In this document: piece by piece, positions 19,748 through 47,808 of the stretch
Position numbering within the stretch: the first letter of the stretch is position 1
How the letters are laid out: every line of letters begins with the position of its first letter
Origin: Sulfurospirillum sp.
GTDB lineage: Bacteria; Campylobacterota; Campylobacteria; Campylobacterales; Sulfurospirillaceae
Length of the DNA stretch: 64,000 nucleotides
Assembly: GCA_045047115.1 (NCBI GenBank)
Contig: JASFYR010000008.1
Span: forward strand, 64,001 to 128,000
Direction: 5' to 3'
Translations under genes and position numbers: made by a program
Notes under the pieces: generated by a model
Seen by the model: only the letters and a program-made list of their open reading frames with translations
Told to the model about the DNA's origin: nothing
Database searches by the model: none

Positions 19748-20548
19748 ATGAGATATTTTATATTGGTTGTTTTAGCGAGCATCGGACTAAATGCGACCAT
19801 CTACTATGCAAAAGTTGAACCTGTACAAAAGTACAGCATCAAGTCAGCTGCAAGTGGAAAAGTTTTGAAATCAAAATACAAGATGGAGGGAAGAATCTCC
19901 AAAGGTGATGCTATTATCCATCTGGATGATGTTTTAAATAAAGAGGATTTAAAAAATTCTACTGAAAAATTAAAAACTATAAGAGATTTGATTTCTATTA
20001 CAAAAAAGAATCTTAAAAACGCCAAGAGAGTAGCTGGCATAAGAGAGAAAAACTACAATAAGATCAAAAATTTGAAGACAAAAGCAAGAGTCGAAAAAGA
20101 TAACGAACTTATAAACAGTATAAATGCACAAAATCAAGTACTAAGCCTTATGAGCAGTCTTGAAAATCTAAAGAGTCAATTAAACGATCAAAAGTATAAA
20201 ATTGCTACACTAAAGGATTTGATAAGCAAAAAGAGCATATCAATCCCAAAAGGATATCTGATATATAAACTCTATCTTCAAAAAGGCGACTTTGCCGGAG
20301 TCGGTACACCTTTGGTAGATGCTTACGATATATCTCATGCAAAACTGACTGTTTATGTCTCAAAAGAGGATTACTATTTGGCAAAAAACGGGATAATTTA
20401 CTTGGATGGCAAGGCGACAAATTATAGAGTAAATAAACTCTGGGATAGTAGCGACACACAAAATATATCATCATATAAGGCGGAGATACTTATATCTGCA
20501 CCAAAAGTTTTTTCAAAACTTGTAAAAGTTGAGTTTAGGAAAAGATAG
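19748..20548 (+). CDS. HlyD-like periplasmic adaptor (membrane fusion) protein
   Basis: Signal peptide, lipoyl-like IKSAASGKV, central coiled coil, second lipoyl half (L..GDF...GTPL). Confidence 0.7.
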   Translation: MRYFILVVLASIGLNATIYYAKVEPVQKYSIKSAASGKVLKSKYKMEGRISKGDAIIHLDDVLNKEDLKNSTEKLKTIRDLISITKKNLKNAKRVAGIREKNYNKIKNLKTKARVEKDNELINSINAQNQVLSLMSSLENLKSQLNDQKYKIATLKDLISKKSISIPKGYLIYKLYLQKGDFAGVGTPLVDAYDISHAKLTVYVSKEDYYLAKNGIIYLDGKATNYRVNKLWDSSDTQNISSYKAEILISAPKVFSKLVKVEFRKR

Positions 20549-22293
20549 TGAATTTATCCACTTGTCCCCTTGATTGTTTTGACAGTTGTAGTGTTGTTTT
20601 GGGAGATGACGGTCGGCTAAAAGGCGATAAAAATCATCCCATCACTCAAGGTTTTTTGTGTCACCATTTAAACAATTACCATAAAATCCCAAGAATTTTG
20701 AAGCCACTCTATAGAGGCAGAGAAATTGAGCTTGACGAGGCTTTAAATATACTTGTACAAAAGCTAAAACAGAGTATGCCAGCAAAAACTCTGTACTATA
20801 AAGGCAGTGGAAATCTAGGTGCAATGCAGAGTGTAACAAGGCTTTTCTTTGACAGATATGGTGCAGTTGTCACTAAAGGTGGACTTTGTGAAGAGGCTGG
20901 AATTTATGGTATACAGGAGGGTAGAGGTGCAGCTTTGCCACTCTCTCCAAACATAGTAAAACAAAGTGATGTTGTGATAGTTTGGGGACGAAATACAAGC
21001 ATAACAAACTCTCATATGTTACCCTCTCTAAAAGGTAAAAAACTCATAGTGATAGACCCCCGCAAAACCGATATTGCCAAAAAAGCAGATATACATGTAG
21101 CGATAAAACCAAGAAGTGATCTCTGGCTTGCTATGCTTTTAAGTAGAGCTGCATATATGGAACAGATGGAAGATGTGGATTTTATAGAAAAGAGATGTGA
21201 AAATTTTGACTACTTTTTAGATGAAGTAAATGGAACTCCCATAGTCAAGCTAATGCAAAACAGCGGAGTAGGTCTGGATGTCATAGGTGAGATACTCTCT
21301 ATGATAGATGGTAAGAGAGTTACGATTTTAGTAGGAATTGGTGTGCAAAAATATAGTCACGGAAATAGTGTTTTGAGAGCTATTGACTCTTTTGCTGCAC
21401 TTTTGGGGCTTTTTGACAAAGATGGTTGCGGAGTAGGTTTTATAGATGACAGCTCTTATGGTTTTGGCAAACCCTTTGCATGTAGAGCTAAAAAAAGAGT
21501 TCCAATGCCTACGATAAATTTCAGTGATTATGATATAAGCTTTATACAAGGTGGCAATCCTGTGACTCAACTCCCTTGCACCCCAAAGGTAAAAGAGGGG
21601 CTTGAGAAATCAAAATTTATAGTCTATTTTGGTCTTCATCATAATGAAACTTCAAAAATAGCGGATTTGATTATCCCTGCAAAGACTTTTTTGGAAAAAG
21701 AGGATGTTAAGCTCTCGTATGGACATGAGTATGTAGGTTTTATGCCAAAGCTCAAAGAGAGTAAAATCGGCATAAGTGAGTATGAACTCAGCTCATATCT
21801 TATGGGTGCATTTGATTATGGCAAGCTCAAGAGTGAAAAAGAGTATATAGATGAGATTGTTACTAAAAACAGTGTTGAAAAAGATGGTTTCTTAGCTTCA
21901 AAGTATCTTTTAGACTCTCCATATAGCCAAAAATTTTATACCGATAGCCAAAAATTTGAATTTTTTGATGAGTTTGAGGATGAGTTTGAGGATAAGGGAG
22001 AGTTCTTTTTGCTAGCAGTCAAACAGAATAAATCTTTGAATTCACAGTTTTATACAGATGATTTTTTAAGAGTTCCATCAACCATTGGGCTTAGTGATGG
22101 AGATATGGTCAGGTTGACAAACGGGACATATGAATGTGAGTATGAAATAAGAGTTGACGATACTCTTAGAGATGACTGTATGGCTCTAAATTCCGGCGGA
22201 ATTAGCGCAAATATGCTGACACCTCATCTTATGAGTCAAGAGGGTTATGGAGCAGTATATCAAGAATGCAAAGTGAGTATTGTAAGATGTTAG
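20548..22293 (+). CDS. Molybdopterin-dependent oxidoreductase
   Basis: CPLDCFDSC-x-C 4Fe-4S motif, GD..HPITQGFLC, VWGRN, IDPR.T..A..AD, ADLIIPA. Confidence 0.88.
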   Translation: MNLSTCPLDCFDSCSVVLGDDGRLKGDKNHPITQGFLCHHLNNYHKIPRILKPLYRGREIELDEALNILVQKLKQSMPAKTLYYKGSGNLGAMQSVTRLFFDRYGAVVTKGGLCEEAGIYGIQEGRGAALPLSPNIVKQSDVVIVWGRNTSITNSHMLPSLKGKKLIVIDPRKTDIAKKADIHVAIKPRSDLWLAMLLSRAAYMEQMEDVDFIEKRCENFDYFLDEVNGTPIVKLMQNSGVGLDVIGEILSMIDGKRVTILVGIGVQKYSHGNSVLRAIDSFAALLGLFDKDGCGVGFIDDSSYGFGKPFACRAKKRVPMPTINFSDYDISFIQGGNPVTQLPCTPKVKEGLEKSKFIVYFGLHHNETSKIADLIIPAKTFLEKEDVKLSYGHEYVGFMPKLKESKIGISEYELSSYLMGAFDYGKLKSEKEYIDEIVTKNSVEKDGFLASKYLLDSPYSQKFYTDSQKFEFFDEFEDEFEDKGEFFLLAVKQNKSLNSQFYTDDFLRVPSTIGLSDGDMVRLTNGTYECEYEIRVDDTLRDDCMALNSGGISANMLTPHLMSQEGYGAVYQECKVSIVRC

Positions 22294-22997
22294 ATGCAGA
22301 AGTTTTGCTTGAAGATACACTGCTTTTAGTTGAACAAAATTTCTATTTTCTAAATATGGGTGAATTTTTGGGTATGCTCTGTAAAACAGAGGATTTGACA
22401 GATAGAAGTATGTTTGTAGTAAAAAAGTTTGATGAAGAAAATGCGTACTACTTCAATGCGGATATAACCTATGAGCTTCTAAAAAACGCAAGAGAATACA
22501 AACAAGATGAACTCTCTTTATTTGAGTATTTTGTAGAGTTTAATGCCTTTCGCGGAATCTGCATGGCCATGGTAGAAGCTTTGAGGCTTGAGAGTTCTTT
22601 TAAAAGATATATAGAAGATAGATTTAATGATGAATATGAAAATTTTTATGATATACTCTCTTTTGTGCGAAATGTTCTGTCGCACAACACGCATGCAGAG
22701 ATAAGACTAAATGAAAAAGACTTTGCAGGTACACTAAAACGAATAAGAAGAATGAGAAGAGATGAAAAAGTAAAACTAAATTTCAGATACAGTAATGCTC
22801 TGCCCGAAATATCTCCTCCAAACAGTAAATATGGTGTCAATATAGAGATAGATTTTCTCTCCTTGAAGGTTGGAGATGAGTTTTTGAAGATTGTTACTTT
22901 GTGGGATCTTTTTATGCTAAGCGAGCTATGTTTCAATCTTGTATTATCATTTAGGGCATTGAGCCAGCCAAAAGACCAACTCAATATTTATGATTAG
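22287..22997 (+). CDS. Hypothetical protein with RxxxxH (HEPN-like) motif
   Basis: Coupled to the upstream gene; helical acidic protein containing SFVRNVLSHN. Confidence 0.7.
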   Translation: MLDAEVLLEDTLLLVEQNFYFLNMGEFLGMLCKTEDLTDRSMFVVKKFDEENAYYFNADITYELLKNAREYKQDELSLFEYFVEFNAFRGICMAMVEALRLESSFKRYIEDRFNDEYENFYDILSFVRNVLSHNTHAEIRLNEKDFAGTLKRIRRMRRDEKVKLNFRYSNALPEISPPNSKYGVNIEIDFLSLKVGDEFLKIVTLWDLFMLSELCFNLVLSFRALSQPKDQLNIYD

Positions 22998-30342: not shown

Positions 30343-31617
30343 TTATTTCCAGTAGTATCTGGCTCTATCGCCCAGTTTGTCCTCTATCTCTAAGAGTCTG
30401 TTGTATTTTGCTAATCTTTCGCTCCTTGAGGCGGAGCCTGTTTTTAGATGGCCGGTGCCAAGGGCTACTGTAAAGTCTGCCAAAAATGTATCGCAAGTCT
30501 CTCCTGAACGGTGTGATACAAAGGCTCTCCAATTATGTTCATAGCAAAGCCTCACGGCATCTACTGTTTCGCTAACCGAGCCTATTTGATTTAGTTTGAT
30601 GAGCGATGCGTTCGCAGTGTGCTCTTTGATACCTCTTTCTATAAATTTTGTGTTAGTAACAAATATATCATCCCCGACAACCTCTATCTTGTCGCCCAAC
30701 TCTTTTGTCAATTTCTTAAATCCATCCCAATCCTCTTCGGCAAGTGGGTCTTCCCAAAGTATGATAGGGTATCTTCTTACCCACTCTTTTGCCATCTCTA
30801 TGATTTCATCACTTGTTTTTATGCCGGCACCTGACCATTTGAGGTCATACTGTCCGGATTTTCCCCCTACAAAGGATGTTGCAGCACTGTCAAGTGCGAT
30901 AGATATATCCACACCCGGTTTGTACCCGCTTTTTTCTATCGCTTTTATGATGATCTCTATCGCATCTTCATTGCTGGCAAGGTTTGGTGCAAATCCTCCC
31001 TCATCACCGACTGAAGTAGCTAAATCTTTTTCTTTTAGTAGTTTTTTAAGCGTATGAAAAGTCTCAGATACATATCTCAAGCCCTCTTTAAACGAAGGTG
31101 CTCCAAAAGGTACAGCCATAAACTCTTGTATATCTACGCTATTGTCTGCGTGTTCGCCTCCGTTTAGGATATTCATACAGGGGATAGGTATTCTGTTTGC
31201 CTCTGTGCCTCCTAGATACTCATATATCTCAAGATTATGACTTGCCGCGGCTGCCTTTGTGGTAGCCATAGATACTCCTAGAATCGCATTTGCACCTAGT
31301 TTGTCTTTGTTTTGTGTACCATCGAGATTTATGAGCAATTCATCTATCTTCATTTGCTCTGTTGCATCGATACCCATAAGAGCAGGGGCGATTGCATTAT
31401 TCACATTTTCAACAGCTCTCAATACCCCTTTTCCTCCATAGCGACTTTTGTCTCCATCTCGAAGTTCACAAGCTTCATACTCTCCCGTACTCGCCCCACT
31501 TGGAACTGATGATTTTACTTTCGTGCCATCTTCTAACTCCATAAATACTCTCACAGTCGGATTTCCTCTTGAGTCCAGTATCTCCATTGCTCTTATGTTT
31601 TTGATTTTACTGCTCAT
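30343..31617 (-). CDS. eno: Enolase (phosphopyruvate hydratase)
   Basis: EILDSRGNPTV, VPSGASTG, GDEGGFAP, IKLNQIG, SHRSGET, KTGS..RSER.AKYN; start at ATG 31617 after AAGGAAGG. Confidence 0.96.
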   Translation of the reverse strand: MSSKIKNIRAMEILDSRGNPTVRVFMELEDGTKVKSSVPSGASTGEYEACELRDGDKSRYGGKGVLRAVENVNNAIAPALMGIDATEQMKIDELLINLDGTQNKDKLGANAILGVSMATTKAAAASHNLEIYEYLGGTEANRIPIPCMNILNGGEHADNSVDIQEFMAVPFGAPSFKEGLRYVSETFHTLKKLLKEKDLATSVGDEGGFAPNLASNEDAIEIIIKAIEKSGYKPGVDISIALDSAATSFVGGKSGQYDLKWSGAGIKTSDEIIEMAKEWVRRYPIILWEDPLAEEDWDGFKKLTKELGDKIEVVGDDIFVTNTKFIERGIKEHTANASLIKLNQIGSVSETVDAVRLCYEHNWRAFVSHRSGETCDTFLADFTVALGTGHLKTGSASRSERLAKYNRLLEIEDKLGDRARYYWK

Positions 31618-31648
31618 TTCCTTCCTTTGTTGTTTTTTGTTTATTATA

Positions 31649-31813
31649 TCACTTTTTCTGGTAGAGGGAGCAGGTTGTACCACTATTTTTCTTGACTATG
31701 ATTGAAGGAATTAGTTTTGATTTGAAGCCGTAAGCCTTGCATCCATGAGGTCTGGTTTTTTCCCATGTTACATAGTAGTATTTGCATTTTTGACATATTA
31801 TCTTTTTTTCCAT
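31649..31813 (-). CDS. 54-aa four-cysteine small protein (family often labelled uracil-DNA glycosylase in automated annotation)
   Basis: Manual translation MEKKIICQKCKYYYVTWEKTRPHGCKAYGFKSKLIPSIIVKKNSGTTCSLYQKK; pattern CxxC..Y.TW...P.GC..YGFKS...P...V...SG..C. Confidence 0.8.
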   Translation of the reverse strand: MEKKIICQKCKYYYVTWEKTRPHGCKAYGFKSKLIPSIIVKKNSGTTCSLYQKK

Positions 31814-37227: not shown

Positions 37228-37698
37228 TTATAGATTTTTAAGTGTTCGCTCAAAGTCTCCGGCTATCTCTTCGCCTGCTTTATCTATGTCGCTGGTTGTG
37301 ACATCTATCCAGTGGATAAAAAGTGTATCATCCCTTATATCCATAGTGATAGTTCCGGGAGTCAAGGTTATACTGTTTGCAAGCATCAGTTTTTTATAGT
37401 TCTCTTTAAGATCTGTTTTTATCGCAACGATACCTGGGTTTATAGGGAGTTTTGGGTCGATTACTCTTTTTGCCACATCCCAGTTTGCCAAAATCAAAGC
37501 TTTTAAAAATGTTACCAGATATATGATATATGCAATTGGTCTAAATCTAAACTTATCACTACTTTCATAATTTTTTACATAGAGCAGGGCGATAATGAAA
37601 GAGACAACAAAGCCGGTGATTAGCTCTTGAGAACTAAAGCTCATGGTGAGTCCCATCCAAATTAAAAATAAAAACACTGTCCAAAATATAAGTCTCAT
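37228..37698 (-). CDS. mbxA: Na+/H+ antiporter subunit E (MnhE/MrpE-like; MbxA/MbsA)
   Basis: AN.DVA.RV..P.LPI.PGIV, LANSITLTPGTIT, L.IHW; ATG 37698 after GGAGG overlaps the mbxN stop. Confidence 0.88.
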   Translation of the reverse strand: MRLIFWTVFLFLIWMGLTMSFSSQELITGFVVSFIIALLYVKNYESSDKFRFRPIAYIIYLVTFLKALILANWDVAKRVIDPKLPINPGIVAIKTDLKENYKKLMLANSITLTPGTITMDIRDDTLFIHWIDVTTSDIDKAGEEIAGDFERTLKNL

Positions 37699-38105
37699 TT
37701 TACCTCCTCTGCGATATTTTTTTGGTTTATAGGCATATACAAAAAATTGTCCGCACAAGAGTCAGCATGTATGCAGATATTGTCCAGTTTTAGCGAACCA
37801 GGAGGGCATACATCTGTGCAAAGTGAACACCAGCAACATCTTCCATAGTCGATTCTTGGGATACAGCCGCTTGTATTTTTTATATTGTACTCTTTATCAG
37901 GATGTATCATATCTATCGCTTCATTCATACAAACCTCTTGACAGTTTGCACAACCGATGCAGGCTTCAAGGTCGTTTATATGAAAACCTCTGTAGCCTTT
38001 TGGTATATCTTTTTTTACTGCAGGATAAGTTACGGTCTTAGGATGTTCAAACAGAGTTCCTATCGCACTAAGTGGCGATAAAACACCTTTTATATCTATA
38101 GCCAT
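37695..38105 (-). CDS. mbxN: 2[4Fe-4S] ferredoxin-like subunit (NuoI-like; MbxN/MbsN)
   Basis: P.TV.YP, YRGFH, CIGCANCQEVC and RIDYGRCCWCSLCTDVCP. Confidence 0.88.
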   Translation of the reverse strand: MAIDIKGVLSPLSAIGTLFEHPKTVTYPAVKKDIPKGYRGFHINDLEACIGCANCQEVCMNEAIDMIHPDKEYNIKNTSGCIPRIDYGRCCWCSLCTDVCPPGSLKLDNICIHADSCADNFLYMPINQKNIAEEVK

Positions 38106-38115
38106 TTTATCTCCT

Positions 38116-39228
38116 TTATCTCTCTATCTCAGGTGGACATATGCCAAGTGAGTTCATAGTCATCGCTACATCTGCAAGTTGTGAATCCACAAGCAGTTTT
38201 TCAAGCAAAGTATATGCATGTATCAGTGAAGGGCCCCGTACTTGCATTCTTCTTATTTTTTCACTTCCGTCACCTGCCATATAGTAGCTCATAGCCCCTC
38301 TGGCGCTCTCTGTTTGTACATAGGTGTCATCTTTTGGGAGTTTGAATTTTCTGTGTTTTGGAATTTTTTGTAAAATCTCTCCCTCTTTTGGCATCTGCTC
38401 TATAATCTGTCTTAAGATTCTGATTGATTGGATTATCTCATCTCTTCTTACAAGCGCCCTGGCATAGACATCTCCATCGCTCTGTGTCGGTATATCAAAT
38501 TCTAATTTATCATACATAAGGTAGGGTATATCTCTTCTTACATCTTTTTTGATTCCGCAAGCTCTCATGGTTTGACCTACATATCCGTTCTTTAAGACTT
38601 CATCTTTGTTTACTGCGCCAACACCTATGGCTCTTTGTTTAAAAATAACATTATCAAAAAATGTATTGTTGTAGACTATGATTCTTTTTTCATAATAATC
38701 AAGCAACTCTGAGAGTCTGTCTAAAAATCCGTCTGGTAAATCTCTTCTGACTCCACCTGGAAATGCGTACATATGATACACTCTTCCTCCTGTGAGTTCT
38801 TCAAAAAGATCCAGCATATAGTCTCTGTCGCAAACTGACCATTGAGGTATGAGACCGAGTCCTATGGAGCCTGCTTGCCCGCCCATCCATAAAAACTGAG
38901 TTGCTAGTCTTTGCATCTCCAAAACCATGGTTCTTATGTATTTTGCTTTTTCGCTTATTTCTAATCCTGCGAGATTTTCAACTGCTCTTGCAAAGTTTTC
39001 TTCGTTTGGATCCGGTTCGGGAACGCAGATCCTGCAAACTATCGTAAAAGCCTGTACCACAGTCCTTCTCTCTATCAGTTTTTCAAAACCCCTATGAAGA
39101 TAGCCGACATGAGTTTGGGCTTTTTTTATGGTTTCACCAATCAAATCAAGCTCTACACTCATATTTCCCGTGATGCCAGGGTGTTGAGGTCCGTGAAAGA
39201 TTTTTACCATTTTTTCATTTTCAGTCAT
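38116..39228 (-). CDS. mbxL: NuoD/hydrogenase-large-subunit-like catalytic subunit (MbxL/MbsL)
   Basis: GPQHPG, GYLHRGFEK, RICVPEPD, C-terminal CPPEIER; no NiFe CxxC pairs and no NuoD RxDY motif. Confidence 0.88.
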   Translation of the reverse strand: MTENEKMVKIFHGPQHPGITGNMSVELDLIGETIKKAQTHVGYLHRGFEKLIERRTVVQAFTIVCRICVPEPDPNEENFARAVENLAGLEISEKAKYIRTMVLEMQRLATQFLWMGGQAGSIGLGLIPQWSVCDRDYMLDLFEELTGGRVYHMYAFPGGVRRDLPDGFLDRLSELLDYYEKRIIVYNNTFFDNVIFKQRAIGVGAVNKDEVLKNGYVGQTMRACGIKKDVRRDIPYLMYDKLEFDIPTQSDGDVYARALVRRDEIIQSIRILRQIIEQMPKEGEILQKIPKHRKFKLPKDDTYVQTESARGAMSYYMAGDGSEKIRRMQVRGPSLIHAYTLLEKLLVDSQLADVAMTMNSLGICPPEIER

Positions 39229-39829
39229 TTTTTTCTACCTCATCACTTAGGTTGTTTTCCACTTGCGTATCTACTTTGACCTTTGCTTCTTGTTCGGCTT
39301 TTAGTTTTGCTGCTTTTTTAGCCTCTCTCTTCTTTTTCATCTCCACTTTTGCATCAAGCCCGTCATCTCTTTGTCCACGAAACGGATTCATACTGTTTAC
39401 ATACTCAAGCGTATCAAAATCCCTTCTCATAGGCGGTATATTCTCCCAGTGCTCCAGTGCAAAGTCTATGAGGCTTGGGTGAGTAGGAAAATCAACACCA
39501 AACATTTCATGCATCTCTCTCTCCATTATCTCCGCTTGAGGCCAAAAAGTGTGCATTGACGGTAGTGTTGCATTTTCTCTTTGTATATTAGTTTGTACCA
39601 TTACTATGTGATCTCTGTTTTGTGTTTGTAAACAGTATGTGATAGTGAAAAACCCGTCTTCTATATCGTCTCGACAATTTATGGAGTCAAGTGTTATATA
39701 TCCATACTCGTTTAAAAATCTCAACAACAGCGACTCTAACTGTTGGGCATCTATATTTACTTTATAGAGATAGTCATTTTTTGGTATAAGTTCAAGTGAG
39801 AGTTTTTCCAATTTTGAAGCTAAATCCAT
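39221..39829 (-). CDS. mbxK: NuoC-like subunit (MbxK/MbsK)
   Basis: LPS....WP.AE..EREMHEMFGVDF..HP, W..IPPMRRDF; start at 39829 (TAATG coupling). Confidence 0.87.
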   Translation of the reverse strand: MDLASKLEKLSLELIPKNDYLYKVNIDAQQLESLLLRFLNEYGYITLDSINCRDDIEDGFFTITYCLQTQNRDHIVMVQTNIQRENATLPSMHTFWPQAEIMEREMHEMFGVDFPTHPSLIDFALEHWENIPPMRRDFDTLEYVNSMNPFRGQRDDGLDAKVEMKKKREAKKAAKLKAEQEAKVKVDTQVENNLSDEVEKND

Positions 39830-40464
39830 TATGCAATTCCTCCGCCGTTTAAATTGTACCAATCAGTCTCATAGGCCGGGTCGATATGTCCTCCCAAGAC
39901 TCTTTTTTGGTTGTTTTTATAAAATTCCAAATTTTCATCATATTTTTGCCAACCGGCTTTTTCACCGTTTTTTATCTTCTCTTGAAGAAGGACAAATCCC
40001 TCTATTACTGACTCTGGGCGAGGCATACAGCCTGGTACCAAAACATCTACTGGTAGATAGTCATCCAGTTTTTTAATAGTATTGTAAGAGTCCCAGTACA
40101 TTCCGCCGTTTATCGGACAACTTCCAAGCGTGATGATATACTTTGGTCTTTGCATCTGCTCATATGTTCTTATAACTCTTCTTAGAGTTTTATATGCAAG
40201 ATAACCTGAAAGTATGATCAAGTCAGCCTGCCTTGGCGTGGCAACTCCTACTACGCCCATTCTCTCAGCATCATACCTGCTTGTGAAGGTAGGAGGCATT
40301 TCGATAGCTCCACATCCTGTGCCGTAAGCCACTACAAATATGCTTCTGCTTTGAAACCATTTTACAGCCTTTTCCATAACAGAGTGAGTGTTTACCACTC
40401 CGCTCTCTTCTAATTTACATTTCAAACTTCCATCTAAATCGCAACCGTGAAAACCACTCTCCAT
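39829..40464 (-). CDS. mbxJ: NuoB-like Fe-S subunit (MbxJ/MbsJ)
   Basis: GTGCGAIEMPP..TSRYD.ER.G, TPRQAD, YEQM..PKY....GSC.INGG.YWDSY, PVDV..PGCMPRPE. Confidence 0.9.
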   Translation of the reverse strand: MESGFHGCDLDGSLKCKLEESGVVNTHSVMEKAVKWFQSRSIFVVAYGTGCGAIEMPPTFTSRYDAERMGVVGVATPRQADLIILSGYLAYKTLRRVIRTYEQMQRPKYIITLGSCPINGGMYWDSYNTIKKLDDYLPVDVLVPGCMPRPESVIEGFVLLQEKIKNGEKAGWQKYDENLEFYKNNQKRVLGGHIDPAYETDWYNLNGGGIA

Positions 40465-40474
40465 CTTATCCCCT

Positions 40475-41368
40475 TTACCCAAACCAAACTACTCTAATCA
40501 GTCCTGTGACTGCGATTAGAGTTGGTATTTTCATCAAAAAATCAACAGCCTGCTCTACCTTGTATCTTCCGTAAACTATACCTATGAAGATAATGGATAC
40601 AAATATAGCAAGAGTTTTTAGCACCAACATATATAAAGAGTCAGCTCCGCCTAAAAACAGATCAACTATCAAAACCAGCTTTGCAAAAGCAAAGATAGAG
40701 CCCTGAGACATCAAAAGTGCTAAAAATTTGCCACTAAATTCCGTCCTTGGACCGGAATACACCTCTTGAGGAGCTCCTGGTATATCAAAAGGTGACTCTC
40801 CAAAAAAACCAACCATTGAAATCATAGCCGCTATAAAAAGAAGAGGGTGGTTTACTATGTTTAAACCCTGGATTCGCTGCATATCTATGATGTGGACTAT
40901 ATCACTACTGTTTGCTGCGATGATGAGCCCTACTATCGCTATATAAAAAGGCAGTTCCAGGCCTATGAGTCTTGTTAAGCCTCTAACAACACCCATGACC
41001 CCAAAAGGGTTTCCACCGGTTCCAACTGCAAGGGCATTTCCAAGAGGTCCTAAAACCATTAGATATAGAAGCACAAAGAGATTTCCTTGTGAATTTACAG
41101 CTCTTAGAAACCCGCTTTGTGTAAATACGGGTACAAAAAGAAGTGTCAAAACTGCTCCGGTTGCCATGATGATTGGTCCCAGATAGAACATCCAGCCATA
41201 ACTTATAGAGTCTTTTTTTGAAAAGAGTTTTATACTGTCATAAAATGACTGGTATATCGTAGGTCCATATCTGCCTTGAATCCTTGCAGTTATATTTCGG
41301 TATAGTCCAAAGTATATGAAGCCGACTACATAAGCTAGCATGATCAGTAAAATTATTTGAAAAATCAT
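40475..41368 (-). CDS. mbxM: NuoH-like membrane subunit (MbxM/MbsM)
   Basis: R..TARIQ.R.GP...Q.FYD.IKL.SK, PFDI..A.QE..SGP..EFSGK. Confidence 0.9.
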   Translation of the reverse strand: MIFQIILLIMLAYVVGFIYFGLYRNITARIQGRYGPTIYQSFYDSIKLFSKKDSISYGWMFYLGPIIMATGAVLTLLFVPVFTQSGFLRAVNSQGNLFVLLYLMVLGPLGNALAVGTGGNPFGVMGVVRGLTRLIGLELPFYIAIVGLIIAANSSDIVHIIDMQRIQGLNIVNHPLLFIAAMISMVGFFGESPFDIPGAPQEVYSGPRTEFSGKFLALLMSQGSIFAFAKLVLIVDLFLGGADSLYMLVLKTLAIFVSIIFIGIVYGRYKVEQAVDFLMKIPTLIAVTGLIRVVWFG

Positions 41369-43140
41369 CAATTGACTCCTGTAAAAAATAGTGCACTAAA
41401 GAAGAGCAGGATTATAAGCATTGTATTGTGGATATTTCCATAGTACATTCGGCTAAAGAGCTCAGATGTCCTTTTGGTTTGTGTTGCTAACGATTCATAA
41501 AAGCCTGTTGTGCTTCTTTTTAGTATGGCATTTACAAATTTGATTCTATATAAATCAGTACCAAAACCATACCCGAAGTGTAGCGGGGTATCACTTGAGG
41601 GGACTTCACCACAATAACTTATGTCAAATCTGTTTATATTTTTTTTTGCTTTAGAGTTTACTTTCCAGACAAGAAGCAAGATAACAATAAATACAATAAC
41701 AAACGCACTCATGATAAAAAATCCATCAAAATTGCCAACTGCACTGTGTAAAACTCCAATTCCGTCATATGGTATAAGTGGAAGCATAAATTCCTTTAAG
41801 ATAGGGTTTATCACCTCTACAAATACTCCCGGGAATGTTCCTGTTCCTATTAAAAGCAGAGCCAAGATAATCTGGGGAATCAAATAGCTAAGGGGTACCT
41901 CTTTTGTGCTTTCCAAATTCTTAGAAGTAGGGTGTCCTAAATAGATACCGTAAACAAGCTTATAACAATACAGAAATGATGCAGCACCGGAAAAAAGCAT
42001 ACCTATAAGAATAAGAGCAAATTTTGTGTTGATTGCTGCGTTATAGAGTAGAAATTTTGAAGCAAAACCACCAAGTGGAGGCATGCCTGCAAGTCCGATG
42101 ATACCGATAAGCAACATCACAAAAGAGACAGGAGTTCTATATATCAATCCGCCTAACTCACTAAATCTGTTTTTGCCGGTTTGCGCTACAATAGCAGCTA
42201 CATTTATAAATAGCAACAACTTAATGATAGTATGAATCAAAGTATGGTACAAGGCTCCTGCAACTCCATAAGTTGTGCCAAAGCCGATAACGGCTATGAT
42301 ATAACCTAGTTGTGCGATAGATGAGTATGCAAGCAGTCTTTTGACTTCATCTTGTGTGATGGCTTTGAAAGTGGCTATGATGGAGGTAGCAACTCCTATC
42401 CAGGCCAAAGTGTATCCAAAGTCAGTTCCGTTTAGTATGACCCCAAAGATCTCTTTTAACTGAGTGTATCCTACGATATTTCCATATATCAAAAGTAGTC
42501 CGTATATGCCCATTTTCGACATAACGGCAGAGAGGATGGAGCTAAAGAGATCCGGTGATTTGGAGTATGTGTCAACCACCCAGTAGTGCAAGCCTATAAC
42601 GCCGGCTTTTATAAAAAAGCTTAGTGAGAAGAGCACTATGAGGGTTACTTTTATATTCAGAGGCATCGAGCCAAAGGCGCTTGAGACCGTAGAAAAATCA
42701 AATGAGTTTGCAAAAGAGTATGCGATCACCATACCTGCTATCAAAGAGAAAGCCGATGTAAGTGAGAAAAGTATATACTTTTGCAAAGTTTTTGTATCTA
42801 TATTTTTTGATTTTGAGATTAGAAAGTAACTACTCCAAGTCATAATCTCCCAGCCGATAAAAAATGTGATAAAATCACCTGCCATCACTATAACAAACAT
42901 GGCTATCGAGAGTAAAAATTGCAATACATAATAATTGCAGGAGAGTTTTTTACTCTTCTGGGCTATCGTAACAAGTAAAAATGAGATCAAACTCAAGTAT
43001 GCAAAGAATGTACCAAGTGGAGTCTGCGTAAGGCTTAGTGTAAAGCCGGGTGCAAAATTTAGCTCTATATGCAGAGCTCCTCCAAACTGGTACAAAAACA
43101 GTATAGGCAGTAAGTTCAAAAGTAAAAAGATCGAATTCAT
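41368..43140 (-). CDS. Proton-translocating MrpD/NuoL-M-N-like subunit (MbxH'/MbsH')
   Basis: FFIGWEIM, IKAG...LH.W..D.Y, KRLLAYSSIAQLGYI, GLAGMPPLGGFASKF, C-terminal extension. Confidence 0.88.
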   Translation of the reverse strand: MNSIFLLLNLLPILFLYQFGGALHIELNFAPGFTLSLTQTPLGTFFAYLSLISFLLVTIAQKSKKLSCNYYVLQFLLSIAMFVIVMAGDFITFFIGWEIMTWSSYFLISKSKNIDTKTLQKYILFSLTSAFSLIAGMVIAYSFANSFDFSTVSSAFGSMPLNIKVTLIVLFSLSFFIKAGVIGLHYWVVDTYSKSPDLFSSILSAVMSKMGIYGLLLIYGNIVGYTQLKEIFGVILNGTDFGYTLAWIGVATSIIATFKAITQDEVKRLLAYSSIAQLGYIIAVIGFGTTYGVAGALYHTLIHTIIKLLLFINVAAIVAQTGKNRFSELGGLIYRTPVSFVMLLIGIIGLAGMPPLGGFASKFLLYNAAINTKFALILIGMLFSGAASFLYCYKLVYGIYLGHPTSKNLESTKEVPLSYLIPQIILALLLIGTGTFPGVFVEVINPILKEFMLPLIPYDGIGVLHSAVGNFDGFFIMSAFVIVFIVILLLVWKVNSKAKKNINRFDISYCGEVPSSDTPLHFGYGFGTDLYRIKFVNAILKRSTTGFYESLATQTKRTSELFSRMYYGNIHNTMLIILLFFSALFFTGVN

Positions 43141-44585
43141 AGTCCTACTCCTAATGCATAATTGAGATAGCTAGTCGGATGCAGTAGTGCATTTGCGGCT
43201 AAATCCGTATAGTGAAGCAGAAATGACGGATATATGCCAAAAAACACAATGAGTGCTGCTAAAACAGTGAGTATGGCATAGTTTACAGCTCCAATATTTA
43301 TCACTACTTTTGCTCTTTTTTTGTCTGTCATCATAGCGATAATTCTAAAAAAGTATATCGCTTCTACAATCGATACTAAAAGTATAAATGCAACAGCACC
43401 GTAGTTGTGTGAAAGTGCAAAACCTTTTAGTATAAGTATTTTTCCTATAAATCCACTAAACGGTGGAATTCCGAGGACCGATAAAAATGATATGATAAGC
43501 ACAAGAGTCAAAAATGTTGATTTAAAACCGCCTAAGATATCTATTTTCATACTTTTTAGTTTATGTATCAATATACCCAGAGCCAAAAATATCAACAGTT
43601 TTGATATAGAGTGGCTGGTTAGCTGAAATAGCGCACCCGAGACCGTAGTGAGTGAATCTGTACTAAATGCCATAAACAAGATACCCAGCTGTCCGAGTGT
43701 TGAGTAGGCAAAAAGCCTTTTGACATTTGTTTGATTTAGTGCGGTAAATTCGGAGACAAGAAATGTCACGCCACCTATAACAAGTACAAAAAGCATATAT
43801 TTTGAGTTCAATCCAAATAGATAAAAAAGGTGAAAAAAGACAAAAAGGTAGGCTTTTGCCACAACTGAGCTAAAGAGTCCGTTCACAGGAGTTATGCTAC
43901 CTTGGTAGATATCCGGTGCCCAAAAGTTCATGGGAAAAAGCTCCGCTTTTGTGCCAAACCCCATAAAAAGCATCAAGACAATAAGAACTGAGATTTTTGG
44001 ATCTATCAGGTGAAATCTTTGTGCTATGAGACCTAGATTTACAGTACCGATCTGCAGATATATGAGCATGATTGCAAAAACTATAAATATAGAAGCGATG
44101 GAACCGATAATGAGGTACTTGATACCGGATTCCAGCCCCGGCTTGTCTTTGTTGTATGCTGAAAGTGTGTATGAGCAAATACCTGTAATCTCAAAGAAAA
44201 TATAGAGGTTAAATATATCGCAGCTCAGTATCATGCCGATACTGCCGGCTATGAGCATATTGAAAAAGACATAAAATCTAGCCTCATCTCTCTTTTGGTG
44301 CGCTTTAAAAAACCAAGGCATATACAAAGACACCATAAGCCCGGAAAATGTAAAAATCAACAAAAAGAGCAAAGAGTACCCATCCAGTATAAACGCGATT
44401 CCCAAAGGAGGTTTTATAGAAAACTCAGAAATCTGTGGAAGAGTTACACCTGTGTAAGCTAAAGTTTGTAAAAATAGAAGTAAATTTAAGACTATAGAAC
44501 TAGCTCTAAGGACTCCTAGTTTTTTAAAATACGGAGTTAAAAATGAAAAAATTACGGGTAGTAAAAAATAGTAACCTAAGCTCAT
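43137..44585 (-). CDS. mbxH: Proton-translocating MrpD-like subunit (MbxH/MbsH)
   Basis: DIFNLYIFFEI, KYLIIG, KAELFP..FWAPD.Y, KRLFAYST..Q.G, GIPPFSGFIGK. Confidence 0.88.
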   Translation of the reverse strand: MSLGYYFLLPVIFSFLTPYFKKLGVLRASSIVLNLLLFLQTLAYTGVTLPQISEFSIKPPLGIAFILDGYSLLFLLIFTFSGLMVSLYMPWFFKAHQKRDEARFYVFFNMLIAGSIGMILSCDIFNLYIFFEITGICSYTLSAYNKDKPGLESGIKYLIIGSIASIFIVFAIMLIYLQIGTVNLGLIAQRFHLIDPKISVLIVLMLFMGFGTKAELFPMNFWAPDIYQGSITPVNGLFSSVVAKAYLFVFFHLFYLFGLNSKYMLFVLVIGGVTFLVSEFTALNQTNVKRLFAYSTLGQLGILFMAFSTDSLTTVSGALFQLTSHSISKLLIFLALGILIHKLKSMKIDILGGFKSTFLTLVLIISFLSVLGIPPFSGFIGKILILKGFALSHNYGAVAFILLVSIVEAIYFFRIIAMMTDKKRAKVVINIGAVNYAILTVLAALIVFFGIYPSFLLHYTDLAANALLHPTSYLNYALGVGL

Positions 44586-44586
44586 A

Positions 44587-44964
44587 TCAATCCCTTAATT
44601 CATTCATTTTAGATATATCATTTCTGCCTGTGAGTTTATAGTACTCTATACCAAACGACAATCCAAGCGCCAAGATCGCAAGTCCTATAACGATGGTTGT
44701 CAAAATCATCGCCTGAGGAACAGGATCCACCATATTTGTAAATGTTTTTAGATTTTTATCAACTATCGGTGCTACCAAACCAACTTTATAGTGAAGTCCT
44801 ATAAAAAATAAAAAGAGGGCTGACTCCATGATATCAAAAGAGACGAGAAGTTTTACCAGGTTTTTTTGTGTGGCGATTCCGTAAAATCCAACAAAAAAAA
44901 GAGACATGGAGCCCACTATGATGATAAAATGTATAGTCTGTGTATCATTAAAAAACTCAAGCAT
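44587..44964 (-). CDS. mbxG: Na+/H+ antiporter subunit C (MnhC/MrpC-like; MbxG/MbsG)
   Basis: G.YG.....NL.K, VDPVPQAMILT.IVIG. Confidence 0.9.
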   Translation of the reverse strand: MLEFFNDTQTIHFIIIVGSMSLFFVGFYGIATQKNLVKLLVSFDIMESALFLFFIGLHYKVGLVAPIVDKNLKTFTNMVDPVPQAMILTTIVIGLAILALGLSFGIEYYKLTGRNDISKMNELRD

Positions 44965-45685
44965 CGCACACCTCTTTATAGTAATCTTCTTTTATAAAAT
45001 ACTCCACAATCACGCTCATCTCGCTTCCGACTTTTATACCTACTATGATGTAAATCACAGGGATAATACCACCACTTATCAACTCTCCTATCTCACTAAT
45101 CGGGTGAGGCAGGAAGTTTCCAAGCAGGATATTCATCTTGAAGAGTCCGATGATAGCAATCAGGATATATGCTAAACCGCTTAAAGATTCACCAAGTGTC
45201 AAAATACTATGGCTCAGAGACATATTTGGATTTGCTAAAAACAGCAATAAGAAGGCTGTAGCTATAACAACACCACCTTGAAATCCTCCACCGGGACTTA
45301 AATGTCCATGGATGATGATATATACACCAAAGAGAACAATCACACTCATCAGCAGACGACCCCCGACATTTAGTATGAAGCTATCTTGTTTTACAACTTT
45401 TGCACAAGTTCTCTGGGTAGTGCTAAGCATCAGTGCCACACCGGATGTTGCTAAAAACAACACTGTGACTTCACCGACAGTATCAATTCCTCTGAAAAAT
45501 GTAACAACAGAAGTTACTGCATTTGCTGTGGCTGTTTGCATATTTAGATTTAAAAACAGATCCCCGACTGTTTCAAATGTATCTGTTTTGACTTGCATAA
45601 GAAGTCCTAGAATTGACAGAAGAAGAGCAGAAGACAGTATGGATAGAACTATATGCTTGAGTCTTAACTCTTTTTTTAGATTCAT
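44957..45685 (-). CDS. mbxF: MnhB/MrpB-domain subunit (MbxF, MbsE equivalent)
   Basis: NAVTSVV..FRG.DT.GE..VL, IIHGHLSPGGGFQGG. Confidence 0.9.
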   Translation of the reverse strand: MNLKKELRLKHIVLSILSSALLLSILGLLMQVKTDTFETVGDLFLNLNMQTATANAVTSVVTFFRGIDTVGEVTVLFLATSGVALMLSTTQRTCAKVVKQDSFILNVGGRLLMSVIVLFGVYIIIHGHLSPGGGFQGGVVIATAFLLLFLANPNMSLSHSILTLGESLSGLAYILIAIIGLFKMNILLGNFLPHPISEIGELISGGIIPVIYIIVGIKVGSEMSVIVEYFIKEDYYKEVCDA

Positions 45686-45930
45686 GACTCCACCTCCTCT
45701 TGTGAAGTGTGCCTTATACCGAGTAAAAATACAGCTGCACTGAGCCCGGTACCTATAACAGCTTCAGTAAGTGCAACATCAGGAGCTTGAAATATGAAGA
45801 AAAGAACAACGCTTCCAAGACCGACTGCCATAAAAAGCATAACAGACTGCGTAATGTCTTTACTTAAAATTGCTCCTACAGCTACTGCGATAATCGACAA
45901 AAAGGTAAAAAGTATAAGTAAACCTATCAT
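45682..45930 (-). CDS. mbxD: DUF4040/MbhD-like subunit (MbxD/MbsD)
   Basis: F...QAPDVALTEAVIGTG. Confidence 0.88.
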   Translation of the reverse strand: MIGLLILFTFLSIIAVAVGAILSKDITQSVMLFMAVGLGSVVLFFIFQAPDVALTEAVIGTGLSAAVFLLGIRHTSQEEVES

Positions 45931-46262
45931 TCTTCATTCTCCTTCGAAGTCTCTTTGAGTGCATCAGTTCCACTTGTATTGTAAACACTTTTATAAAATC
46001 TTTTATATGTAGTCATCGCCAACACAGAAGAAGATATAGGATTTGTAATGAGTATAAAAACAGCTAAAACGATGAGTTTAAATGCCCATTGTGGCTCAAA
46101 ACAGGCAACTGCCAAAATCACCAGCAAAGAGCCAAGCGTCGAAGCCTTTGTTGCTGCTTGCATCCTTGTTAGGGTGTCTGGCATACGAAGCAGTCCAAGA
46201 CCGCTTATTAAAAACAGTACAGCTCCTAAAAGCCCAAGTATGTAACCTAAGAAAACCAGCAT
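45927..46262 (-). CDS. mbxC: Na+/H+ antiporter subunit G (MnhG/MrpG-like; MbxC/MbsC)
   Basis: GLLRMPD..TRMQAATKASTLG, F.LITNP.SS. Confidence 0.9.
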   Translation of the reverse strand: MLVFLGYILGLLGAVLFLISGLGLLRMPDTLTRMQAATKASTLGSLLVILAVACFEPQWAFKLIVLAVFILITNPISSSVLAMTTYKRFYKSVYNTSGTDALKETSKENEE

Positions 46263-46510
46263 TAAAACTCCTTATCCAAGAATTTGGCAAATACAACAGT
46301 ACCTACAAATCCAATCAGTCCAAAAACAAATGCCACATCAAGATATAGACTTTTTTGAAAATAAAAAGAGAGTACAACCAACAGTGAAGTGGCAATGATA
46401 CTCATCGAATCAAAGGCTACAACCCGATCAGCGAGAGTTGGACCTCTTAAGAATCTAACCAAGACCAGAAGCAGTGATAACGCTATAAGCAAAATCAAAA
46501 AATTTAACAT
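46262..46510 (-). CDS. mbxB: Na+/H+ antiporter subunit F (MnhF/MrpF-like; MbxB/MbsB)
   Basis: R...GPT.ADRVVA.D, YLDVA.V..L..F.GT...AK; start placed at ATG 46510. Confidence 0.9.
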   Translation of the reverse strand: MLNFLILLIALSLLLVLVRFLRGPTLADRVVAFDSMSIIATSLLVVLSFYFQKSLYLDVAFVFGLIGFVGTVVFAKFLDKEF

Positions 46511-46641: not shown

Positions 46642-47808
46642 CTATTTTTTATTTTCTAAATAGTTCAGCAGATTAAACAATTCTTGATTTTCTTCGTTTA
46701 ATTTGGATTTGTCAAGGGTCTTGAGGTAGTATCTTAAAAATGTCAAAGAGCTGTATGGATAGGGTATGTTTGATTCTTCAAAGCGGGCTATTATAGCTTT
46801 TGAGTAACTTGCTTTTTTCCACATAAGTCTGTCAAACAAAAATGCCATAGAATCAAGTATCTCTATAAGGCTTTTTATATTTTTTTCATATGAGGATTCA
46901 AATTTTTCACTAAATTCATTGAAAAAGTGTTCAAAATACTCATCAGTTATGGGTAAAAGCATTTCATTTTCTTCTCTTAGGGTGCCAATATAGTCAATAG
47001 CATCGACATAAAGACTCTTTAGATGCTTGATATTATGCTTAAGAGTTGTGAGTTCCAGATCATCTTTGTTGAGTTCTCCTAGCTGAGCCATTTTCTGTTT
47101 AATTTCACTTTCCATTACGCTTAGACTTGCTTTTAGACTCTTCATGGCGGAGATATTTCTCTCTAAGCGTTTTTTTGCCTCCTTGTATCTTGTATATCTT
47201 AAAAATATATTTGAAAATGCAATTTTTGGGTACATATAGCTTTTTTTGTATATATTGTATATATCATTTATGTTTTGAATGTTTTGATAGACTTCTGTGA
47301 GATTTCCATCAGCAAGTGAACTGTCTATCTCCAAAAGATTGTTATAAGCGGTAAATAAAAATCTTTTTATCCTAAAATAATCCAATCTCTCGTCACCTGA
47401 TTGAAGTTCATAATCTTTGTATTTACTGACAGTATCCCTTAAAGAAGAGAAAAAATTGTTCATTGTGGTATTTATAAAGTTTTTTGGAACAGTTTTTATA
47501 GAGTAAAAATCCGGGTCAATTTTTTTATCAATTGACTCTATATTCTCATCTGGCAAGCTTGTTTGGAGTATAGTCTTTTTTGCATCTTGTATATCTATGG
47601 GATTGTTGGTTTTAGTATCGGCTTTGGACTGCTTCTTGATACTTTTGGCAATCCCGTCTTCCAAGACAAAAGAGACCTTTAGTCCAATCTGCGGTAAGTT
47701 GTCTAAATCATCCCAAGATTCTATATCAAATCTATACTTCTGTTTTTCATTTGAAAGTATCAAACCAGTGCCATTATCAGTATTGTAAAATATAATAGTT
47801 CCATTCAT
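46642..47808 (-). CDS. Hypothetical protein with N-terminal cold-shock-like OB fold and central coiled coil
   Basis: M.G.I..YN...G.G.I......Y.F....W......P..G..V.F; heptad-rich middle region. Confidence 0.7.
   Translation of the reverse strand: MNGTIIFYNTDNGTGLILSNEKQKYRFDIESWDDLDNLPQIGLKVSFVLEDGIAKSIKKQSKADTKTNNPIDIQDAKKTILQTSLPDENIESIDKKIDPDFYSIKTVPKNFINTTMNNFFSSLRDTVSKYKDYELQSGDERLDYFRIKRFLFTAYNNLLEIDSSLADGNLTEVYQNIQNINDIYNIYKKSYMYPKIAFSNIFLRYTRYKEAKKRLERNISAMKSLKASLSVMESEIKQKMAQLGELNKDDLELTTLKHNIKHLKSLYVDAIDYIGTLREENEMLLPITDEYFEHFFNEFSEKFESSYEKNIKSLIEILDSMAFLFDRLMWKKASYSKAIIARFEESNIPYPYSSLTFLRYYLKTLDKSKLNEENQELFNLLNYLENKK

Follow-up and report, generated by a model that had tools for sequence, protein, structure and literature searches.

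A stretch of 64,000 nucleotides from a Sulfurospirillum sp. of the Campylobacterota (assembly GCA_045047115.1, contig JASFYR010000008.1, positions 64,001 to 128,000; the whole stretch is called the window below) carries on its minus strand an operon of 13 intact open reading frames (ORFs), which runs from an ATG at 46510 to a stop at 37228, is free of internal stop codons and, judged by its sequence, encodes an intact complex of the membrane-bound sulfane reductase (MBS, formerly MBX) family (Table 1). The 12 junctions between the genes are overlaps of 1–8 bases or gaps of 1–10 bases, and the families recognized by Pfam and NCBIfam follow each other in the order MrpF, MrpG, MbhD/DUF4040, MnhB (with MbhE), MrpC/NuoK-like, two Proton_antipo_M, NuoH, NuoB, NuoC, NuoD, NuoI-like and MrpE. 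An earlier reading of the bare sequence (the original prediction) had described a complete, tightly coupled MBX/MBS operon of 13 genes, and this description stands; the MrpE-like subunit is also present as claimed, but it is encoded by the last gene and not the first. This is no chance resemblance: the E value to MbsL is 1e-88, and at least 11 other genome loci hold all 13 genes in identical order.

Table 1. The 13 genes of the mbs operon, from first to last (positions in the window)
Gene	Product	Position	Strand	Matches
mbsB	MrpF-like, 82 amino acids, first gene	46262..46510	-	PF04066; best PDB match 6u8y_B, E 1.3e-15, equal to Mrp F 6z16
mbsC	MrpG-like, 111 amino acids	45927..46262	-	PF03334; TIGR01300 above cut-off
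mbsD	MbhD/DUF4040, 82 amino acids	45682..45930	-	PF13244
mbsE	Fused MbhE + MbhF/MrpB-like, 242 amino acids	44957..45685	-	PF04039 and weak PF20501; best PDB match 6u8y_E, E 2.5e-46; second 6cfw_F, 9.8e-14
mbsG	MrpC/NuoK-like, 125 amino acids	44587..44964	-	PF00420
mbsH	Antiporter-like predicted proton pump, 482 amino acids	43137..44585	-	Best PDB match 6u8y_H, E 3.2e-67
mbsH'	Second antiporter-like predicted pump, 590 amino acids	41368..43140	-	Best PDB match 6u8y_X, E 2.9e-66
mbsM	NuoH-like membrane anchor, 297 amino acids	40475..41368	-	Best PDB match 6u8y_M, E 9.5e-43
mbsJ	NuoB-like, three-Cys proximal [4Fe-4S], predicted catalytic subunit, 211 amino acids	39829..40464	-	Best PDB match 6u8y_J, E 4.7e-62, ungapped
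mbsK	NuoC-like, 202 amino acids	39221..39829	-	PF00329
mbsL	NuoD-like large subunit, 370 amino acids	38116..39228	-	Best PDB match 6u8y_L, 301 bits
mbsN	Short 2x[4Fe-4S] subunit, 136 amino acids	37695..38105	-	Best PDB match 6u8y_N
mbsA	MrpE-like, 156 amino acids, last gene	37228..37698	-	PF01899

For all eight subunits tested (L, J, H, H', M, N, E and B), the top PDB match was 6U8Y, the MBS of Pyrococcus furiosus, in agreement with the assignment first made; the best NuoD chain scored 209 bits against L. As predicted, L has RICVPEP (residues 66–72) and a C-terminal CPPEIER, and it lacks the CxxC motifs that bind NiFe in hydrogenases: just two of the four NiFe cysteines are present, and these are the vestigial pair of MBS (C68 and C364), the spacing C65-R-I-C68 being distinct from the NiFe motif RxCxxC. 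RICVPE was found in 119 of 120 L homologues. The extra Cys65, which is Leu in Pyrococcus, occurs in all 120 and in 76 of 80 metagenome loci.

The J subunit, in an ungapped alignment, retains the ligating cysteines C28, C93 and C123 of P. furiosus as C51, C116 and C146; C25 is replaced by Gly and there is no fourth motif cysteine. Its proximal [4Fe-4S] cluster is predicted to be held by three cysteines, which is the catalytic hallmark of MBS: in P. furiosus, J tolerates the C25A mutation without loss of activity, and reduction of trisulfide requires the unliganded iron (PMC7684303; this paper and the others cited below by PMC number are represented here by parts of their text). YGTGCG is present in all 27 aligned rows of loci, and [YF]GTGCG in all 53 metagenome loci in which the motif is visible (six more are cut at the motif); the Gly at the C25 position is, in these alignments, the general bacterial form.

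Residues of the putative ion pumps were counted by hand on printed alignments, using the residue list of the MBS structure paper. All five of the P. furiosus residues are identical in H' (E128, K217, K248, H336, K399). In H three of the five are identical (E138, K250, K393), E219 being replaced by Lys and H330 by Gln; in M three of five are identical (D196, E203, E211), E193 is displaced by one position and E104 is lost. The B subunit retains D30, D36 and D60 as D28, D34 and D58 (residues named in PMC8165549), and with these aspartates and homologues of MrpE, F, G, B and C the operon possesses an Mrp-type Na+ module. At the level of sequence it has what characterizes MBS: 13 subunits, two pumps with a charged axis, the L cysteines without H38 or Y87, a three-cysteine J and the Mrp module.

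Related systems are distinguished by what they have in these places. In a group 4 [NiFe] hydrogenase, RxCxxC and a C-terminal CxxC would stand where L has RICVPE and ICPPEIER, and MbhL reached only 135 bits. Ehr complexes, which we take to comprise HyfB/C/E/F-like membrane genes and a fused NuoC-D-like subunit without Ni cysteines, with no Mrp E, F or G, have a layout different from that of the mbs operon; that layout is seen instead elsewhere in the host genome (labelled G000), at G000:C14:108512-122912 (locus L032), where two tandem Hyf-like modules, with large subunits lacking the nickel cysteines, are followed by two NuoB-like small subunits. Neither hyp nor NuoE, F or G families were found by Pfam among 67 ORFs of the window (scans of 18 and 49, covering those of at least 100 amino acids that were gene-like, plus two short operon genes), again as predicted; the molybdopterin ORF at 20548-22293 scores higher with Fdh/Nas-type models than with NuoG.

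Complex I deserves closer attention, because L exceeds the NCBIfam cut-off for NuoD (385 against 360 bits), the YGTGC of J resembles the YGTAC of NdhK, and the chambers of MBS and complex I are equally wide (PMC7684303). The acceptor could on these grounds be (methyl)menaquinone or another hydrophobic molecule, which would make the complex a third, ferredoxin-fed, complex-I-like pump. The claim that L lacks the quinone-site motifs holds only in part, as the first His of HPxxHG is retained (GPQHPGITG); however, the second (H38 of Nqo4) is Thr, and Y87 is Val. Nor does the operon have the tandem CC of NuoB. All of these features are kept by both of the separate nuo operons found elsewhere in the host genome (one of them with NuoEF, and one showing a Cys for Tyr+1 variation), whose existence the original prediction had marked for checking, and every complex I chain scores below 6U8Y. 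We regard a quinone acceptor as unlikely. With its own nuo operons and four Psr/Phs-like molybdoenzymes, the host would have in MBS an extra system rather than a replacement of complex I or Psr, and the two nuo operons, the Ehr-like cluster and a single group 1 hydrogenase indicate that those other jobs are already filled.

A further thought is that the Mrp module alone matters, in salt or pH control in seawater, and that the redox arm is a passenger. The aspartates of the sodium path in B are retained, no other Mrp genes were found in the host genome, and some loci hold partial operons; but it is L and J that are best conserved between families (74–76% and 65–70%, as against 42–63% for the Mrp-like genes), and the cluster cysteines are invariant across the aligned homologues, so that we give this explanation very little credence.

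MbsN stops after 136 amino acids and aligns with the model PRK13984 (611 positions) only over positions 6-131. Sixty-one longer N homologues (567–637 amino acids) carry a fused GltD/NfnB-like flavin domain, the arrangement with an FAD/NAD(P)H domain that is typical of Thermotoga and that the host operon lacks. Among the 80 metagenome loci compared, N is complete in 53, and these divide without exception: N is short in all 28 loci with L identity of at least 69% and fused in all 25 that are more distant. The position of mbsA follows the same division, being behind N in 27 of the 28 short-N loci and upstream in all 15 fused-N loci that hold it. Chromatiaceae N homologues are likewise short (130 amino acids). 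We infer that a single rearrangement removed the NAD(P)H domain from N and put mbsA in its place. Since the short-N clade is without the GltD-like domain, it is likely to need a separate electron donor. In six of the distant fused-N relatives (L103, L105, L108, L113, L114 and L117), H and H' are apparently one protein of 1000–1140 amino acids, and the second vestigial cysteine is missing from some L proteins of this set, which end in YPPEIER.

The operon is patchily distributed. In a survey of 401 genomes sampled across Campylobacterota, L matches were found in four (the host's own counted), while MBS is present in 12 of 61 genomes of the host family, in three genera, and in 28 of 151 genomes of a second family that groups with Sulfurovum and Nitratifractor (two of the 28 at low identity). 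The original prediction of a system uncharacterized in this phylum survives to the extent that we found none in print for Campylobacterota; the complex is not unique to this genome, and bacterial MBS/Mbx has been described in other phyla. The nearest named L homologues are from Sulfurospirillum (85–88% identity), followed at 70–78% by Sulfurovum, Sulfurimonas, Nitratifractor and Chromatiaceae; closest outside the phylum are the purple sulfur bacteria (70–72%). A plasmid collection gave only NuoD-level matches, the best at 36% among the 20 of 138 matches listed. In one locus (L035, G259:C120:22000-41213), the mbs operon lies among genes whose products have, by eye, phosphofructokinase-, glucose-6-phosphate isomerase- and GH57 glucanotransferase-like N-termini.

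Two trees were built from hand-picked subsets of 49 and 28 Mbs sequences, with no archaeal or Thermotogota row. The Campylobacterota sequences form one group in both (91/92 in the more careful tree, which is below the starred threshold), with three well-supported subgroups; they are sister to Chromatiaceae (99/99), and together the two lie inside a clade (100/99) that has fused-N forms as its sister and on the outer branches. G+C content at third codon positions (GC3) is 0.33–0.37 for four operon genes; each of the two nuoD genes has 0.33, and the genome as a whole 0.30 +/- 0.04. Recent horizontal transfer is rejected, as there is no compositional signal, and the idea of a recent or archaeal import, to which a prediction of horizontal acquisition might have led, fits neither these values nor the purple sulfur bacteria as nearest outsiders nor the position of the clade inside bacterial Mbx (in trees, as noted, without archaea). 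The closeness in GC3 to the nuo genes and the nesting inside bacterial Mbx point instead to acquisition long ago from some bacterium, followed by many losses.

What might serve as the separate donor? The host genome has two Nfn systems. One, at G000:C30:5952-11837, comprises genes for an ETF-quinone-oxidoreductase-like protein, a fused Etf and a fused NfnAB, and served as a control. The other is a two-gene NfnAB at G000:C18:16121-18402 (L025:7122-9403, minus strand), unlinked to mbs, whose orthologues (at least 80% identity) are found in 11 of the 61 family genomes: 11 of the 12 that bear MBS and none of the 49 others. Within the host genus, eight genomes have both MBS and Nfn, one has MBS alone and five have neither; within a second genus of the family, two have both and 12 neither. 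In the one MBS-positive genome without an Nfn match (G404) a contig breaks off at the nfn site, whereas in the MBS-negative G401 the genes flanking that site are joined directly; G413, first scored as MBS-negative, proved to have the membrane arm on a contig ending in mbsM. The Jaccard index with MBS is 0.92 for NfnAB and 0.13–0.60 for four comparison genes. Carbon monoxide dehydrogenase (CODH), ATP-citrate lyase, the fused Nfn at C30 and glycogen synthase were rejected as obligate partners, as their presence patterns do not match; glycogen synthase came closest (nine of 12; within the host genus nine with both and two without MBS). In a DNA-level control that was small (35 kb) and not genome-wide, only nfnAB and the mbs operon were, among five discriminating genomes, present in G422 and G419 and absent from G165, G409 and G416. 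A phylum-wide Nfn search gave four of 401 genomes, three of them shared with MBS, but as four candidates were scored per genome it is not used as a count.

The NfnA of this system has SDAVCG[HQ]AE in all seven aligned orthologues and in five more (12 copies), where other NfnA proteins have a glycine-rich GGG.G or AGG.G (five of five, and two more), a loop that we take to be the NAD(H)-binding site. In addition, a C-terminal CxxC is present in nine of the 11 copies of this rewired form with visible ends. An AlphaFold model of NfnA resembles 5JCA_S (template-modelling score 0.84), as regards fold only and with low confidence in the [2Fe-2S] loop and the C-terminus, and overall the protein is closer to NfnI (5JCA). 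The cluster motifs of NfnB (RCx2Cx4Cx3CPV and GRVCPQExQCx3C) and the [2Fe-2S] motif of NfnA are present (motifs as given in PMC6405883). The pairing of MBS with an Nfn of altered loop in the host family is new here, and the genes suggest that this Nfn is likely to be a dedicated partner. The link is not universal: in the second family, an Nfn match was found in 15 of 151 genomes, only six of them MBS-bearing. In the five of these whose NfnA was checked, three had the rewired type (75–85% identity), two with MBS and one (G460) without.

It might be supposed that NfnAB is a physical subunit, with NfnB docking on the short MbsN where the flavin domain used to be, so that the whole would be an NADPH:polysulfide oxidoreductase with no free ferredoxin. 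The domain lost from N is indeed homologous to NfnB (38% identity), co-occurrence is 11 of 12, and nfnAB lies some 300 bases after mbsA in L075 and after the fused N in L095. Yet these adjacent copies carry the ordinary NAD loop; stand-alone NfnB falls in a clade separate from the fused domain in a quick tree, which led us to reject its origin as the split-off half of a fused N; nfnAB and mbs are on different contigs in the host, and in the closed genome G075 some 1.1 Mb separates them; and 22 of the 28 second-family MBS genomes have no Nfn match. A docked Nfn seems to us improbable.

We put at roughly 0.6 the probability that the complex is an ion-pumping ferredoxin:polysulfide (sulfane sulfur) reductase, with Nfn balancing NADPH and ferredoxin. 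By analogy with Pyrococcus MBS, reduced ferredoxin would dock on N, electrons would pass from N to J, the iron of the J cluster that has no Cys ligand would cut the S-S bond, and H and H' would each move one proton; the Mrp module would exchange sodium during turnover, and the reaction site would be the cytoplasm. The unlinked NfnAB would be likely to meet the need for a donor in the host family and to balance NADPH and ferredoxin in sulfur respiration, the role reported for NfnII/Nfn2 beside MBS in Pyrococcus and Zhurongbacter. The complex might in this way use low-potential electrons from pyruvate, 2-oxoglutarate, CO or stored glycogen, beside periplasmic Psr/Phs enzymes fed by quinol electrons. 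Ferredoxin-reducing enzymes in the host include, as read from their sequences, NifJ-type, four-gene POR-like and OOR-like genes, and a Ni-CODH scored above cut-off (G000:C41:35950-39258, locus L031, with CooF-like, CooS above the TIGR01702 cut-off and CooC-like genes, present in five of 61 family genomes); glycogen synthase is encoded too, in a cluster (C10:668-16878) away from the mbs operon. The predicted Na+/H+ coupling needs some qualification, as the Na+ link would be less direct than in Pyrococcus: the c subunit of the host ATP synthase lacks what we take to be the Na+ motif. Since that synthase looks proton-driven, the gain would be mostly proton-motive force and sodium export. Sulfurospirillum sp. 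1612, whose L is 85% identical, grows on H2 and elemental sulfur and also on pyruvate, lactate or malate with elemental sulfur (PMC11406935).

A number of points weigh against this function. Such growth on sulfur can be explained, given the gene content, by the four Psr/Phs-like molybdoenzymes alone, and the MBS-negative G165 has enzymes of this type as well. H Q321 and M V106 deviate from the pump residues of Pyrococcus. At four loci (L055, L057, L061 and L067), mbsK-L-N(-A) stand alone, with no J or membrane genes in the stretches of up to 10 kb upstream, and in L067 L and N are about 5 kb apart with other genes between them; this Sulfurimonas-like subgroup may have an operon that is split or in decay. 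As regards Nfn, Fisher values for its link with MBS are overstated because kin are not independent, just six of the 28 MBS-bearing genomes of the second family have any Nfn match (two of the rewired type), and G460 (95% complete) has rewired Nfn without a match to L, H' or N. Finally, the nearest relatives live by oxidising sulfur, and to such organisms reduced ferredoxin comes at a high cost; the host itself has ATP-citrate lyase and Sox (SoxY).

These last facts belong to the main rival explanation, in which the complex would run in reverse: driven by proton- or sodium-motive force, it would raise electrons of sulfide or short polysulfide to the level of ferredoxin, which would feed the reductive tricarboxylic acid (rTCA) cycle and, via NfnAB, yield NADPH. 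ATP-citrate lyase is present in all 14 genomes of the host genus, and in the Riftia symbiont the first neighbours of Mrp-Mbx in co-expression are genes of the rTCA and not the Calvin cycle (PMC11636981), a finding that likewise tells against sulfur reduction. From potentials that we presume, the lift would be 33–41 kJ/mol per two electrons as compared with 73 from menaquinol, at 12–17 kJ per ion; two ions would yield just 23–35 kJ, so that three would be required. However, G419 and G422 (95% and 98% complete) have MBS and Nfn yet no ATP-citrate lyase match, from which it appears that the MBS-Nfn module is not tied to the rTCA cycle; 12 lyase-bearing genomes are without MBS; and no reverse activity of MBS appears in the available parts of the MBS literature cited here. 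We consider reverse running rather unlikely.

A more elaborate scheme may be offered as tentative and rather unlikely. A lineage that lost the flavin domain of MbsN may have recruited an NAD-independent NfnAB whose Cys loop (with the C-terminal CxxC in most copies) would pass high-potential electrons from NADPH to polysulfide or persulfide, while the low-potential ones would go via ferredoxin and MBS to more polysulfide, with ion pumping. Were this true, mesophilic vent bacteria would respire sulfur with electrons from NADPH, fed in by bifurcation and with conservation of energy; the process might be reversible, so as to supply ferredoxin, and the third substrate of NAD-independent Nfn enzymes would be named.

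Sulfur respiration in Campylobacterota has been explained by periplasmic Psr. MBS and NfnAB together likely form an unstudied cytoplasmic route of sulfur breathing, and MBS, if conserved across two or three environmental families, would give them a second, ferredoxin-linked and energy-conserving route, hidden in databases under nuoD and mnh gene names. A culturable mesophilic relative would allow the mechanism of MBS (ion stoichiometry, reversibility, the vestigial cysteines) to be tested away from hyperthermophile conditions, and the tight pairing with a loop-rewired Nfn bears on the question of what NAD-independent Nfn enzymes reduce during sulfur growth.

Some other genes in the window and genome may be mentioned. 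Directly upstream of the operon is a 388-amino-acid ORF (46642-47808, minus strand) with no Pfam or NCBIfam match, a homologue of which also precedes mbsB in L006 and L008 and not in other loci. Scans for promoters and terminators gave 35 and seven sites against 29.7 and 6.4 in shuffles, and nothing is claimed from them. At 20548-22997 (plus strand), a 581-amino-acid molybdopterin oxidoreductase with no signal peptide, below all NCBIfam cut-offs, is followed by a 243-amino-acid ORF without a family; at 30343-31683 (minus strand) is an enolase with a weak DNA-level match to five relatives, perhaps a second, divergent copy. Elsewhere, at G000:C2:32561-38325 (L030), a small NifB/NifX-like protein (by eye) is encoded close to genes for two ATPases of the MinD type that carry ferredoxin motifs; genes of this kind belong to the sulfur response of Thermococcales.

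That automated annotation would split the complex, as had been foreseen, is borne out by the database label of L homologues ('NADH-quinone oxidoreductase subunit D') and by Table S10 of PMC13209400 (2026), in which MnhB, C, E, F and G are listed as vent-specific antiporter genes; these are probably the mbs operon. The main texts of that paper and of PMC11406935, both on vent Sulfurospirillum isolates, make no mention, in the parts available, of Mrp, antiporter or sulfane. Our literature searches found no report of MBS/Mbx for Campylobacterota, though reviews and the supplements of cited papers could list members. Already known are MBS/Mbx in archaea and other bacterial phyla, being characterized in Pyrococcus (PMC7684303) and reported from Zhurongbacter and from thermophilic phyla near it (PMC10356935), and the GltD-fused form of N; new here are the short MbsN and terminal mbsA, which mark this clade off from its GltD-fused bacterial relatives.

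With the MBS of P. furiosus (6U8Y; PMC7684303), the host complex has in common the set of 13 subunits, the fusion in E, the two pumps H and H', a pair of vestigial cysteines (C85/C385 in P. furiosus), the lack of H38 and Y87, a three-cysteine proximal cluster and an unfused N. It differs in the Gly of J at C25, the extra Cys65 of L, an N of 136 rather than 208 amino acids, the position of mbsA as last gene and several charged residues; the organism that carries it is also different, being bacterial and having complex I in two operons, Psr/Phs enzymes and an ATP synthase of the proton type. The GltD-fused-N form described for Thermotoga and proteobacteria, with Mbx-like operons in Thermotoga and Magnetococcus (PMC4758237), has the same L and J motifs, and the short-N clade is nested among such operons in both trees; the missing flavin domain and the mbsA behind N set the host clade apart, a change common to Chromatiaceae. 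The putative Mrp-Mbx of the Riftia symbiont (PMC11636981) is also an Mbx-type operon of unknown function in a mesophilic vent sulfur oxidiser, there a gammaproteobacterium, the likeness being one of description and not of sequence. PsrABC/PhsABC, of which the host has four such enzymes, would share the predicted acceptor, but these are molybdenum-containing, periplasmic, quinol-fed and sulfide-releasing, and unrelated to the mbs operon. The nearest parallels to MBS beside an Nfn with an altered NAD-binding domain are two: in Zhurongbacter (3DAC), MBS and Nfn2 are both high with sulfur (PMC10356935), and in P. furiosus, NfnII (Xfn, 5VJ7) has an altered NAD domain and no NAD activity and rises with sulfur (PMC6405883). 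There the link is one of expression, with archaeal-like genes; here it is one of presence and absence, and the host NfnA, nearer to NfnI than to NfnII, has undergone a different change of loop, one that brings in a cysteine.

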